64,000 bases of DNA. It comes from an uncultured archaeon. Lineage in GTDB: Archaea > Asgardarchaeota > Lokiarchaeia > Sigyniarchaeales > SOKP01. The position numbers and the translations under genes are program-made. A model generated the notes under the pieces. It was not told where the DNA came from. It saw only the letters and a list, made by a program, of their open reading frames with translations, and ran no database searches. Below, piece after piece: positions 29,072 through 60,337 of this stretch. The first letter of the stretch is position 1; the number at the start of each line of letters is the position of its first letter. The stretch covers positions 128,001 to 192,000 of the forward strand of contig CAZALK010000003.1 in assembly GCA_964486045.1 (NCBI GenBank). The letters are read 5' to 3'.

Positions 29072-30496
29072 CTAATAATTTAACCCTTTAAAGTAGTTAA
29101 CGGTAGTAAAAAGATTCTTACCACCTTTTCTTAGAAACTTCATCGCATCCTCTATTCCTTCAATAGACAAATCATACATGGGGATAATACTAGAAATTAT
29201 TTTACGCGTCCAAGGGCTCCATTCGGGTCTAATTAACTCGGGGTTTAGCCACACAATCCCATCCTTGAAATGGTGAGCTAGCTCTTTAATATAATAGATA
29301 CCAGGCATCTCATTCTTGTGATAGTAATATATCGAACCATACTTTTCTGTAAGTTCCCAACTAGCCATAGCAGCGTCTCCAACGATCACTACGCGATATT
29401 TTTTGTCATATTTTTTTAAAAAATCATCAAATTCAATTGCTTCATCAGGATTTCTTCGACCACTAAAGTATAGAGTCTCATAAATGCAATTATGAAAGTA
29501 ATAATATTTGAAGTCCTTCCAGTGTGACATGTTATTAGCTGCGGAGAAAAGAAGATTGACGAATTTGGCATATGGAGTCATACTACCACCTACGTCCATA
29601 AGAAGTAAGATTTTAACATCATTTTTGCGTCGTTTATCAAACACTATTTCGATATCTCCACCATTCTTTGCGGTCTTATCAATAGTATCATCAATATTCA
29701 ATTCATCTTGCTTTCCAATTTCTTCAAGTTTTTTGAGTCTTTTAAGAGCTACTTTAATCTGTCTTGTATCGAGAACTATATCTTTTCTATAGTCTTTAAA
29801 GATTCTTTTTTCAGCAATTTGAACGGCAGTTCGCATTCCTGCTGATCCCCCAATTCTCATACCCATTTCATTTTGTCCAGAATTACCAAATGGTGAAGTA
29901 CCTCGAGTACCAACCCAATGGTCCCCGAAATTGTGTTCTTCATCCTGTTGCTGCATTAATTCTTCGAGTCTTTTTTGCATTTCTTCAAGACTAAAAAACT
30001 GACTCCTCATTTCTGATGGTTGTCCGCCTAACTCATTTGCGTTGAGATTACTCTTTAGCCATTTTAGGATTTCTTCCCTAATCATATCTGGTGTGTCAGT
30101 TAAAACTCCTTTTCGTAGCTCAGCATCGTATTTTTCCAAAAGTTCTTCCAAAAATTTTTGTATATCCTCCACATTCAAATACTGCTGGTATTCTTTTAGT
30201 AGGATTTGTACTCCTTCTATTAATTCAGGAAAAGCTAGGGGTTTTTCAAGCCAATCCCAAATGTCTTGTTTAAAATCTTCTGGGAATTGGATCATCGCGT
30301 TTTTGAAGAAGTTCGCAAATGAAATATCATAGATATCAAAGTGATGCTCGTTCTTGCAGAGGATGGATCTTGAAGTGTAATAAAAATCTAAAAAATTCTT
30401 AATAAGCCCTTTATTAAGAGCTTCTAATAAAGTCAAATACTCTGTAATACTTACCGGCAATCTTTCTTTCAGATAGTAGAAAAATTCGACAAACAT
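29072..30496 (-). CDS. VWA-domain protein (CoxE-like MoxR partner), long paralog
   Basis: LLMDVGGSM MIDAS motif, YYFHNCIY, VGDAAM, VWLNP, GTRGTSPFG. Confidence 0.9.
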   Translation of the reverse strand: MFVEFFYYLKERLPVSITEYLTLLEALNKGLIKNFLDFYYTSRSILCKNEHHFDIYDISFANFFKNAMIQFPEDFKQDIWDWLEKPLAFPELIEGVQILLKEYQQYLNVEDIQKFLEELLEKYDAELRKGVLTDTPDMIREEILKWLKSNLNANELGGQPSEMRSQFFSLEEMQKRLEELMQQQDEEHNFGDHWVGTRGTSPFGNSGQNEMGMRIGGSAGMRTAVQIAEKRIFKDYRKDIVLDTRQIKVALKRLKKLEEIGKQDELNIDDTIDKTAKNGGDIEIVFDKRRKNDVKILLLMDVGGSMTPYAKFVNLLFSAANNMSHWKDFKYYYFHNCIYETLYFSGRRNPDEAIEFDDFLKKYDKKYRVVIVGDAAMASWELTEKYGSIYYYHKNEMPGIYYIKELAHHFKDGIVWLNPELIRPEWSPWTRKIISSIIPMYDLSIEGIEDAMKFLRKGGKNLFTTVNYFKGLNY

Positions 30497-30660
30497 TTCT
30501 ATAAATAATCTAATTTATTATTTCTTAATATTATATAAATTTGTAACTATTATAGGTTTTTGTCAAGTTAGGGGTAATAATAAAACCTACATTGATTCCA
30601 AAAGCAAACTGCCTTAGAAAACAATTAATATCACACTTATTTACTCCTAATTTATTTTTT

Positions 30661-41286: not shown

Positions 41287-42525
41287 TTAATACAATGCTA
41301 AAATAACATCCTTAAGCTGATCAACAGTGGTATAATGATTTTTACCACCTGTTCTTAAATAGTCCATGGCATTTTCAATACCTTTGATACTGAGATGAAA
41401 GGTTGGAATAATCTTCGAGATTTTTAATTTAGTCCACGACATCCATTCAGGCCGGACTGGTTCAGGATTTATCCAAATAATATTTTTTTTAAAATGACTG
41501 GCAATTTCACTAATATAATAGATTCCTGACTTCTTGTTGCTTGCATCATCATATATAGCTCCATGTGGATTTACTAACTCACTTCGATACATAGTTTGAT
41601 CTCCCACAATTATAACTCTATAAGAATCATCATATTTTTTAAGGAAATCATCGAAGTCAATCGCTCGATCTGTATTTCTTTTAGCATCATGATATAAATA
41701 ATTATAAATACAATTGTGAAAGTAAAAATACTTGAAAACTTTCCAATGAGATATATTGTTCGCTGCTGAGAATAATAGATTTACTTGATAAATATATGGG
41801 TCCATCGTTCCACCAACGTCCATTAAAAGTAATAGCTTTACATTGTTTTTTTTCCTTTTACTGAAAAATAGCTCAATATCCCCACCATTTCTACCAGTTT
41901 CGTCAATAGTCTTCTTAAGATCTAATTCATCCTTTTTGCCAATTTCATCTAACCTCTTAAGTCTTTTCAACGCAATCTTTATTTGTCGTGTATCCATAAC
42001 TAAATCTTTCCTGTAATCTTGGAACATTCTTTTTTGGGCAATTTTTACTGCACTTTGCATTCCACCTTCACCTGCTATTCTAATACCCATTAAATTTTGA
42101 CCCATATTACCAAAGTTTGATTGACCAAGTGTACCTATCCATTGATCTCCAAAATTATGTTCCTCATCTTGCTCTTGAAGTAATTTTCTGAATTGTTCCT
42201 CTAATTCTTCTAAACTCATATTTGGAAACAATTTTTCAAAAACCGCGGGTAGTTGGAGAATTTTAATGTTTTTATTCAACCACTCCCAAATCTCTTGTTG
42301 GATCTCTTCAGGAAATTTAATTCCTGCATCCTTGAAAAAATTCGCGAAAGCGATGTCATAAATATCGAAATGGTGCTCATTGTGGCAGAGGATAGACCTT
42401 GATACATAATAAAATTCGACCATGTTCTTTATAAGCCCCTTATTGAGAGCCTCCAGCAAAGTTAGGTATTCAGTAATACTTACGGGTAAAATTTCACGAA
42501 GGTAATAAAAATAATCCAAGAACAT
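41287..42525 (-). CDS. VWA-domain protein (CoxE-like MoxR partner), short paralog
   Basis: LLMDVGGTM, FYFHNCIY; clear paralog of 29072-30496. Confidence 0.9.
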   Translation of the reverse strand: MFLDYFYYLREILPVSITEYLTLLEALNKGLIKNMVEFYYVSRSILCHNEHHFDIYDIAFANFFKDAGIKFPEEIQQEIWEWLNKNIKILQLPAVFEKLFPNMSLEELEEQFRKLLQEQDEEHNFGDQWIGTLGQSNFGNMGQNLMGIRIAGEGGMQSAVKIAQKRMFQDYRKDLVMDTRQIKIALKRLKRLDEIGKKDELDLKKTIDETGRNGGDIELFFSKRKKNNVKLLLLMDVGGTMDPYIYQVNLLFSAANNISHWKVFKYFYFHNCIYNYLYHDAKRNTDRAIDFDDFLKKYDDSYRVIIVGDQTMYRSELVNPHGAIYDDASNKKSGIYYISEIASHFKKNIIWINPEPVRPEWMSWTKLKISKIIPTFHLSIKGIENAMDYLRTGGKNHYTTVDQLKDVILALY

Positions 42526-57900: not shown

Positions 57901-59106
57901 ACGGTTACTCATGGTATTAAAGATAAAGTTGCAGTAATCGGCTGCGATGCCACTAAATTTGGTGAATTGTGGGATAAAAGCAAAGAAGATTTACTGTTTG
58001 AATCTACTCAAGGCGCTATTAAGGATGCAGGGATTAAAAAAGATGAAATTGATGCTGCATGGCTCGGAGTTTATTATTTTTTCACAGGTGTTTCTGGAAC
58101 CACATTGGAAGATTCATTAAGATTAGGTGGGAAGCCTATAACTAGAGTTGAAAATTATTGCGCAAGCGGAATGGAATCTATAATACTTCGTTATTGATAT
58201 TCAAACGCTTTCCGCAATGCTTGTTTTGGTGTGGCATCGGGAGCTTATGATGTGGCATTAGCTTGTGGTGTTGAAAAGCTAATGGATGAAGGTGGTAGAG
58301 GATTGCCTGGAACAACAGTAATGGGACATCCAGTATTACCACGACCTTCAGCACCAGCTATGTTTTGTTTATTAGCTACTCGTAGTTTTCATGAATTCGG
58401 TTGGAGAAAAGAAGATCTAGCTCGTGTAGCAGTTAAGAATCACGAAAATGGATTTTATCATCCAAAGGCTCATTTCAGAATGAAAATTACATTAGAACAA
58501 GCTATGAATGCCCCAATGATAGCAGATCCACTCGGACGATTTGATTGTTGCGCGATGAGTGATGGTTCTGCTGCATTAATCCTTACTCGACCTGAATTAG
58601 CAGAGTCTTATGCTCATGCTGACGATTATGTTCTTGTTAAATCAAACTCACTTTCAGTTCATTCGGCTTATCCATGGTATGATCCAAAGTTTGATTTTAT
58701 ATGTGCTCCAGCTACGATTGATGCAGCAAAAATGGCATATAAAGAAGCAAACATTACAAACCCAAGAAAAGAAATTGATTTAGCAGAAGTTCACGATTGT
58801 TTTACAATAACTGAGTTATTAAATTGCCAAGATCTACAACTATGTGATAGTGGGAAAGCTGCCGAAGAATTACAAAAAGGTACTTTTAATTGGGATGGTG
58901 AAACTGCGATAAATCCAAGTGGTGGCCTAAAATCTTTCGGGCATCCTATAGGGAGTACTGGTTGTAGGATGGTTCAAGAAGTTACTAAACAACTTCAAGG
59001 AAGAGCTGAGGGAAGACAAGTACCTGATGCAAAAACTGGATTAGCTCACAATCTTGGTGGGGCTTATGCTGTCTGTTCTGTGACTATTTTAGGGCAGAGA
59101 GATTAA
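57901..59106 (+). CDS. Thiolase (acetyl-CoA acetyltransferase, archaeal/SCP-x type); spliced join(57901..58174,58205..59106), 391 aa
   Basis: GIKDKVAVIG, TRVENYCASGM|DAFRNA after intron removal, GVEKL, KNH, AEVHDCF, GHPIGSTG, HNLGG. Confidence 0.88.
58175..58204 (+). other. 30-nt bulge-helix-bulge intron in the thiolase mRNA
   Basis: AAGCG-GAAT-[GG^A]-ATC...GAT-ATTC-[AA^A]-CGCTT; contains the in-frame TGA; removal gives ATG GAC GCT TTC (MDAF). Confidence 0.88.
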
Positions 59107-59294: not shown

Positions 59295-60178
59295 ATGAAT
59301 GAATCATTTAATAAATTTCAAGGAGACGTAAAAACCGATAATTTAAAGTATCTTGCAGATCCCCAACTTAGAAATATTGTAAATGTGTCTATTGCTTTAG
59401 AACGTCCCTTACTAGTAAAGGGAGAACCCGGAACCGGAAAAACTATGCTAGCTCACGCAATATCGCAGAGTTTGAGTAAAAAACTACTAATTTGGAATGT
59501 TAAAAGCACTACTGAGGCTATTGACGGGTGCTATATGTATGATACAGTTCAACGTTTAAATGATAGTAGATTTGGTTCAGAAGACCGAGACGTAAACAAA
59601 ATTCACGATTACATTACATTTGGTCCCCTTGGAGAAGCATTTGACGCTAACGAACAAGTTGTTCTCCTTATCGATGAGATCGATAAAGCAGATATAATGT
59701 CTAATAATAATTAGCATTACTGCATATTGAGTTTCCGAACGACTTGCTACAAGAATTAGATGTAATGGAGTTCTATGTAAAAGAGACAAAAGAATTTGTA
59801 AAAACTAAAAAGCGGCCAATAGTGATAATTACTTCGAATAATGAAAAAGAACTTCCAGATGCCTTCTTAAGAAGGTGTGTATTTCACTGGATTGAATTCC
59901 CTTCTAGAGGATTTATGACAGAAATATGTAATCTCCATTACCCAAATCTTAAAACAAATTTATTAGATCAATGTCTTAAACACTTTTATGCATTGCGCGC
60001 GATTACAAAACTTAGAAAATTGCCTTCTACTTCCGAACTCCTAGATTGGATTGGAGTACTTTTAAAAAGTGGGATTAGTATTGACCAATTAAAAAAAGAA
60101 ATTCCTTTCTTAGGTGTTCTCATAAAGAAAGAAAAGGATCTCGAATTTGCATTAGAAAAACTTAAATTTCCTTCATGA
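59295..60178 (+). CDS. MoxR/CoxD-type AAA+ ATPase; spliced join(59295..59693,59726..60178), 283 aa
   Basis: GEPGTGKT, WNVKST, YDTVQRL, LLIDEIDKAD|IEFPNDLL after intron removal, TSNNEKELPDAFLRRC, PSTSELLDW. Confidence 0.9.
59694..59725 (+). other. 32-nt bulge-helix-bulge intron in the MoxR mRNA
   Basis: AA-GCAG-[AT^A]-TAATG-T-CTAAT-aata-ATTAG-CATTA-CTGC-[AT^A]-TT; causes an in-frame TAG and a frameshift; removal gives GCA GAT ATT GAG TTT CCG. Confidence 0.88.
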
Positions 60179-60238
60179 TCAATAAGTAGACTTAAAGAAA
60201 TCCATTTTTTTTTTGATTTTATTATTTTGATATTAATG

Positions 60239-60337
60239 TTATCTCCAATTTGGACATCCTTTTCCTCTGCGAATATTATCTGGAGTCGCATTCCATATTT
60301 TTCAGCAGTCATGATGATAAACATATGTTAATTCCAT
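60239..60337 (-). pseudogene. Decayed zinc-ribbon repeat fragment
   Basis: Own translation ...HHDC*KIWNATPDNIRRGKGCPNW, matching the C-G-x-x-W-x-A-x(3)-(I/R)-x-RG-x-GCP-x-C ribbon pattern with two lesions. Confidence 0.5.

Follow-up and report, generated by a model that had tools for sequence, protein, structure and literature searches.

A putative BHB intron in the coding sequence of a MoxR-type ATPase gene from an Asgard archaeon, and its predicted exon scaffold

The interrupted moxR gene and its surroundings

We analysed a stretch of 64,000 nucleotides from an uncultured archaeon of the Sigyniarchaeales (Lokiarchaeia), hereafter called the window, and the genome to which it belongs (G000). 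Toward the end of the window a gene for a MoxR-type AAA+ ATPase is encoded on the forward strand in two parts. Exon 1 (59295..59693) covers codons 1-133 with the Walker A and Walker B motifs, and exon 2 (59726..60178) covers codons 134-283 and the stop codon. They are separated by a predicted BHB-type intron of 32 nt (59694..59725, +), designated type A; the same insert was found in G020, G049 and six metagenome contigs. The moxR gene was the sole copy found by tblastn in the 5.18-Mb, 99%-complete assembly. On the reverse strand, a nuclease remnant (60233..60301), in which 20 codons are left of the C-terminus of a zinc-finger-repeat endonuclease, lies tail-to-tail with moxR.

An intact moxR orthologue scored above the Pfam cut-offs for AAA and AAA_5 (PF07728), and a PDB sequence search with the ATPase returned distant AAA+ matches only. 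An intact CoxE-type VWA gene (41287 to 42525 or 42537, −) is located ~17 kb from moxR, and its counterpart is directly downstream of moxR in several relatives; it encodes the probable partner of the ATPase. The name MoxR-type is thus reasonable, given the AAA_5 match and the CoxE-type VWA neighbour in relatives. The window also contains a second CoxE-like VWA paralogue (29072-30514, −), which is about 68 residues longer, and both paralogues lie apart from the single moxR gene.

The BHB core (59688..59726, +) consists of a central helix (GCAG at 59688-91 with CTGC at 59720-23), two ATA bulges (59692-94 and 59724-26) and an intron stem (59695-59719), with predicted cuts after 59693 and after 59725. 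All of these elements, together with the AATA loop and the 5+5-bp stem with its bulged T59700, had been described in a first-pass annotation of the sequence, and each was found where it had been placed. Excision of 59694-59725 joined the 160-aa and 144-aa ORFs into one 283-aa ORF (59295-60178), as had also been proposed. The spliced product aligned without gaps to intact orthologues at ~85% identity (83-87% within the genus). All three reading frames through the insert are closed, by TAG at 59712, TAA at 59695 and three TAA codons from 59702.

The four pairs of the central helix are all Watson-Crick in G000, with a pairing probability of about 0.99, and the pair probability of the BHB core was 0.93-1.0 in folding windows of 100-400 nt. 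The folding z-score of the hairpin alone was modest (−2.3). The G000 intron stem is imperfect, carrying two substitutions against the consensus that are rescued by the bulge. When random positions in genes were subjected to an equally permissive BHB test, 0/900 passed. No sequence like the insert was found elsewhere in G000. A group I or group II intron, or another catalogued structured RNA, was also considered and rejected, as an Rfam search over 59400-60000 gave zero matches at E≤1 and a ribozyme core would not fit into 32 nt.

The boundary of the insert had been called ambiguous because of a repeat at its ends. This is true of G000 taken by itself, where five shifted removals of 32 nt give identical spliced DNA, but the ambiguity disappears when relatives are considered. 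With a second bulge of AGA or AAA, G020, G049 and others have lost the end repeat but not the BHB, and these sequences place the boundary at the BHB cut, the left-most of the options.

Distribution, covariation and selection

Carriers were searched for with an exon-anchored pattern, which for metagenomes fixed GAT at codon 130. Inserts at the junction were detected in 3/54 genomes of the genus, 12 metagenome contigs and 4 GTDB records, with duplicates still included. After de-duplication, nine type-A genes (32 nt), four type-B genes (31 nt) and two type-C genes (29 and 31 nt) were retained. Types A and B share the same insertion nucleotide in 13 independent gene copies from separate assemblies, and this recurrence excludes an assembly error. 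The type-B insert differs in sequence from type A, the proteins of its carriers are 77-79% identical to that of G000, and the two type-B carriers with GTDB handles fall in another genus. Type C, carried by L041 and L045, is cut 2 nt upstream of the A/B site, at coding nt 397, and its outer helix is strict. Since this unrelated intron occurs in two distant genes, the Walker B junction appears to be a hotspot of intron gain. Most moxR orthologues are uninterrupted.

Additional BHB introns were observed at coding nt 139, inside Walker A (L035, L049 and L060), and at coding nt 265 (L035, L039, L045, L049 and L054). L035 and L049 each have three introns in one moxR gene of 850 nt.

In 20/20 distinct junction contexts at the four positions, the best-scoring BHB placement (with one tie) yielded an intact protein. 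Insert lengths of 32, 31 and 29 nt demand different frame corrections, and BHB cuts solve all of them; the invariant segment following Walker B is regained solely by excision. The first bulge is ATA in all 13 type-A and type-B carriers. The central helix has 4/4 pairs in every type-A copy and 3/4 in type B, where a G.A mismatch ends the helix and its probability is low in 3/4 copies.

Across 11 distinct type-A/type-B pre-mRNA junctions, 97.4% of cells were paired, compared with 27-44% in slid controls, a figure to be read with the caveat that the sequences are related, the carriers partly kin and the structure derived from the same sequences; for that reason counts from shuffling do not serve as probabilities. 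Two-sided changes affected eight pairs: six of them, which separate types A and B, belong to the intron stem of 9-10 bp, and the central helix and a helix that closes the exons (see below) contribute one each. In the central helix, the exon codon GCA is replaced by the synonymous GCC and its intron partner U by G, converting an A-U pair to C-G.

We also examined selection on the exons. The first-pass annotation had named exons evolving without purifying selection as the mark of an ordinary insertion pseudogene; between G000 and its intron-bearing sister L042, however, dN/dS was 0.059 over both exons, at dS values of 1.03 and 0.67. Exon 2 gave dN/dS of 0.03-0.12 in the other measurable carrier pairs, and the carrier exons contained zero stops or indels. 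Codons 134-146, which precede the first ATG of exon 2, encode an identical peptide in 14/15 carriers, the last showing a single V-to-I change, while the third positions of these codons vary. Purifying selection on the exons and the maintenance of codons 134-146 exclude a dead gene and make separate translation of the halves unlikely.

Two readings that leave the insert in the mRNA bear directly on these data. A broken gene in which the BHB shape is incidental could draw on the observation that moxR was not found in roughly one in four of the class genomes searched and may be dispensable. The low dN/dS at dS 0.67-1.0, the open exons and the compensatory changes within the insert leave this explanation next to no chance. 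Alternatively, the halves may be translated separately, or ribosomes may frameshift or hop across the hairpin. Translation of exon 2 could begin with the TTG at 59744 or the ATG of codon 147, and the strong hairpin could pause ribosomes. However, codons 134-146 upstream of that ATG are conserved as protein in 15/15 carriers, stops occur in all three frames of the insert, there is no slippery heptamer, and no single shift would serve insert lengths of 29, 31 and 32 nt. Such a mechanism would also leave the BHB geometry and the exon covariation unexplained, and we consider it very unlikely.

Splicing machinery and a predicted exon scaffold

G000 encodes two EndA frames of 202 codons (C7:36259-36864 and C10:136865-137470), both above the TIGR00324 cut-off, and RtcB (E=4e-167); many of its tRNA calls carry introns. 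The best solved match of the first EndA was EndA alpha of A. pernix, and the alignment contains equivalents of its Y125, H133, K164, R157, W183, K44 and R46. In A. pernix EndA, Y125, H133 and K164 constitute the catalytic triad, and the loop with K44 gives activity on relaxed, loop-type motifs (PMC3241643). The second paralogue has no catalytic His, consistent with a structural subunit. The expectation in the first-pass annotation that a relaxed motif would go with a heteromeric enzyme agrees with this putative pair of paralogues, one of them catalytic with the Crenarchaea-specific loop residues. Judging from these gene products, the host has an EndA predicted to cut relaxed motifs, and the ligase is encoded.

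The outer exon helix had been described as weak (two pairs, a mismatch, then T-A) and the motif as possibly relaxed. The weakness and the relaxed motif were confirmed, but the helix itself is not predicted to form, as the canonical outer pairs had a probability of about 0 in wider sequence context. In types A and B only 1-2 outer pairs are possible, short of the strict hBHBh' motif. A shifted register of the outer helix, suggested by a short fold, was rejected because its probability was 0.24 or less in wider context.

When the flanks were included, the predicted fold was a three-way junction composed of an exon-1 hairpin, the BHB arm and a helix between exon 1 and exon 2. The 8-bp hairpin (59668..59686, +; 59668-75 with 59679-86) adjoins the central helix. 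The 10-bp closing helix is formed by a 5' arm (59655..59664, +) and a 3' arm (59737..59746, +), the latter covering the rare codons CCG137 and TTG140. In this prediction the 3' cut lies in a 13-nt loop instead of a 3-nt bulge, so that a relaxed-specificity enzyme or local refolding would be needed.

These helices, made up of synonymous codons, distinguish carriers from intron-less alleles. All eight hairpin pairs were present in 13/13 carriers versus 3/73 intron-less alleles, and all ten closing-helix pairs in 12/13 versus 0/73; no intron-less allele (0/73) combined a 9/10 closing helix with an 8/8 hairpin. In the closing helix 99% of cells were paired, with one two-sided change, and its probability in G000 was 0.99 in a 104-nt folding window and 0.5 in a 400-nt one. 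Exon-only folding energies were −15 to −25 kcal/mol in carriers, whereas intron-less alleles gave −7.1 ± 2.7 kcal/mol (best −14.2; n=73). Per-codon resampling from intron-less alleles gave P = 2e-4 for a perfect scaffold.

Codon usage in the exons follows the same pairing. The exon helices explain the use of ATC126, ATC129, CCG137 and TTG140, which are fixed in carriers and uncommon elsewhere; CCG137, for example, occurs in 13/13 carriers versus 4/71 other alleles. Most unpaired third positions (124, 128, 134, 135, 136 and 141) are variable among carriers, whereas at paired positions the variation preserves the pair in all cases but one. Carriers of introns at nt 139 and nt 265 mostly have stronger exon-exon duplexes as well, at −15 to −19 compared with about −10 ± 3, with a single exception. 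The exon-exon duplex is not strengthened in type C, whose outer helix is strict. Based on these predicted folds, the scaffold most likely takes the place of the outer helix and tethers the exons until they are ligated. Once both cuts are made, the central helix departs with the intron, and the scaffold could then keep the two exons side by side for RtcB.

In L039 and L049, several amino-acid changes were noted at codons about 77-86, in an otherwise invariant stretch that overlaps the exon-exon helix of the nt-265 intron. This suggests a protein sequence yielding to RNA structure.

Spread of the intron and its interpretation

A midpoint-rooted tree was constructed from 28 host-genus rows after masking of the scaffold codons. 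Type-A carriers required four changes on this tree, and a single clade was rejected (p-AU 6e-37). The carrier L038 is almost identical to the intron-less L017 over codons 16-120, whereas 8/15 third positions differ between them over codons 121-135, where L038 matches the carrier L029 exactly. Third-position similarity between carriers was highest at codons 121-150. From these alignments, the intron and the scaffold codons appear to travel together as a DNA patch by homologous recombination. The absence of any intron-less allele that keeps the scaffold argues against recent loss via reverse-transcribed spliced mRNA. In a separate comparison, L031 was near-identical to L036 and L034 in moxR exon 1 (dS 0.06) and divergent in exon 2 (dS 0.83), a contrast that indicates frequent recombination inside moxR.

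The nuclease remnant beside moxR is 80% identical to the C-terminus of a long ORF in L038, which matches Pfam DUF4379 and PHROG endonuclease families. The nuclease gene or its remnant lies tail-to-tail with moxR at 8/9 type-A loci; among intron-less loci a clear remnant was found at one, L064, and none was found at type-B or type-C loci. Four further large genes with the nuclease domain are located in G000 at C1:296.2 kb, C1:494 kb, C1:701.5 kb and C4:282 kb, three of 1460-1720 codons and one split over two frames. The zinc-finger-repeat endonuclease family is multi-copy and probably mobile. Collaborative homing of the intron by the neighbouring nuclease is a lead only, drawn from this linkage.

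Two further explanations turn on the alleles and flanks. One accepts the spliced intron and opposes only the scaffold, taking the flanking codons as a co-inherited tract or immunity signature whose exon helices are idle in splicing. The linkage of the nuclease to 8/9 type-A loci as opposed to the one intron-less remnant, the similarity peak at codons 121-150 and the collaborative homing described in phages (PMC2988022) speak for it, and shared scaffold codons could be partly co-inherited among carriers that are partly kin. On the other hand, type-B carriers keep the same helices without a downstream nuclease, variation inside the tract follows pairing, and no BHB intron was detected near the four other members of the nuclease family in G000. 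We regard this explanation as doubtful, though a real contender. The other assumes excision at the DNA level, or a tiny mobile-element remnant, with intact alleles in the population supplying the protein. Intron-less alleles are the majority and closely related, the insert is an AT-rich inverted repeat, and a short direct repeat flanks it in G000. But G020, G049 and others keep the BHB although their copy of this repeat is disrupted, the insert has no other copy in the genome, and 0/73 intron-less alleles keep the scaffold codons, unlike the expectation for fresh excision products. We judge this second explanation extremely unlikely.

We consider it very probable, from comparative sequence evidence, that the 32-nt insert is an mRNA intron removed through the tRNA-splicing route of archaea. 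The data show the geometry, the restored frame, the conservation, the selection on both exons, the presence of the enzymes, the association of scaffold with intron and the polyphyly of carriers; in vivo cutting and joining, the function of the scaffold, and the direction and driver of spread are inferred. In the folded pre-mRNA, a 3-nt bulge would lie between the intron stem and the 4-bp helix that pairs exon with intron. A two-subunit EndA would cut after 59693 and after 59725, and RtcB would join the exons to give the full ATPase mRNA. With a canonical outer helix of only 1-2 bp, the 3' cut would fall in a relaxed, loop-type site. The 8-bp exon hairpin and the 10-bp exon1-exon2 helix would close the three-way junction, position the site and hold the cut exons, a role that may be likened to that of the tRNA body for tRNA introns. 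Intron and scaffold codons would be gained or lost jointly, as a short DNA patch, by homologous recombination.

The genome contains other inserts of this shape. We compared 567 orthologues in 800 kb of G002 without reference to any motif, an approach blind to genes broken in both genomes. Three frame-breaking inserts were found in G000, the moxR insert among them and all BHB-shaped, and four in-frame inserts, none BHB-shaped. A second BHB insert of 30 nt, with a strong canonical outer helix, lies in the upstream thiolase gene (58175..58204, +); once it is removed, the sequence after the cysteine of the catalytic region again matches that of the G002 orthologue. Outside the window, at C5:195271 (+), a frame-breaking 30-nt insert with BHB geometry interrupts a gene whose G002 orthologue is intact. 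Two ab initio searches of the whole genome for BHB motifs were uninformative, as altered-bulge controls gave similar counts (86 vs 99 in one, 9 vs 2-6 in the other).

BHB motifs were previously known in one mRNA, cbf5, to which the intron in the 5' UTR of Haloferax volcanii HVO_1309 has been added (Schwarz 2020, PMC7714728). The cbf5 intron is mostly relaxed and is cut by hetero-oligomeric EndA (Yokobori 2009, PMC2738675). Like the moxR intron, that of cbf5 in Desulfurococcales and Sulfolobales (Watanabe 2002; Yoshinari 2006; PMC2738675) is short, lies in coding sequence at a conserved functional motif, has a relaxed BHB cut after the second bulge nucleotide in a host with hetero-oligomeric EndA, and shows lineage-specific presence and absence. 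However, cbf5 is an unrelated gene in another phylum, and its splicing is proven by cDNA, whereas that of moxR is predicted from sequence. The moxR family differs further in its four intron positions with up to three introns per gene, in the interruption of other genes of the genome, in a polyphyletic, patch-like spread as opposed to one ancestral gain with losses, and in having a three-way junction of exon helices where the outer helix would be.

The HVO_1309 intron resembles the moxR intron in that EndA acts on mRNA, but it lies in an untranslated region and leaves the frame unbroken (PMC7714728). Non-canonical tRNA introns of Asgard archaea (Goswami 2026, bioRxiv 10.64898/2026.10.13.758758) share the organism group, the motif, repeated gains and a two-subunit EndA. 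That study covers tRNA genes only and the word 'mRNA' is absent from it, whereas the moxR substrate is a coding sequence whose helices are built from codons. Phage collaborative homing (PMC2988022) likewise involves an ORF-less intron in a conserved motif, an adjacent nuclease gene and signs of co-conversion; there, however, the introns are self-splicing group I introns, while beside moxR the nuclease gene survives only as a remnant in G000 and does not occur at type-B loci. In the literature searched, which left most subscription journals outside its scope, crenarchaeal cbf5 was the only coding-sequence BHB intron, and no report of coding-sequence introns in Asgard archaea was found.

We give roughly even chances to a wider proposal, that Loki-type Asgard archaea routinely splice the mRNAs of many ordinary genes with protein enzymes. 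Introns would persist where the outer helix is poor because synonymous recoding, and at one other site apparently even amino-acid changes, turn the exons into tRNA-like scaffolds that keep the cut halves in place for ligation; intron and scaffold would pass from species to species as a recombination cassette, sometimes driven by a neighbouring homing endonuclease. Intron gain and loss is the central open problem according to Goswami 2026 (bioRxiv 10.64898/2026.10.13.758758), and the coexistence of intron-bearing and intron-less alleles in close relatives makes both observable at one site. If ordinary Asgard genes do contain frame-breaking introns of the EndA type, such genes would be mis-annotated as pseudogenes or fragments, and the closest prokaryotic relatives of eukaryotes would already be translating mRNA that is spliced without a spliceosome.
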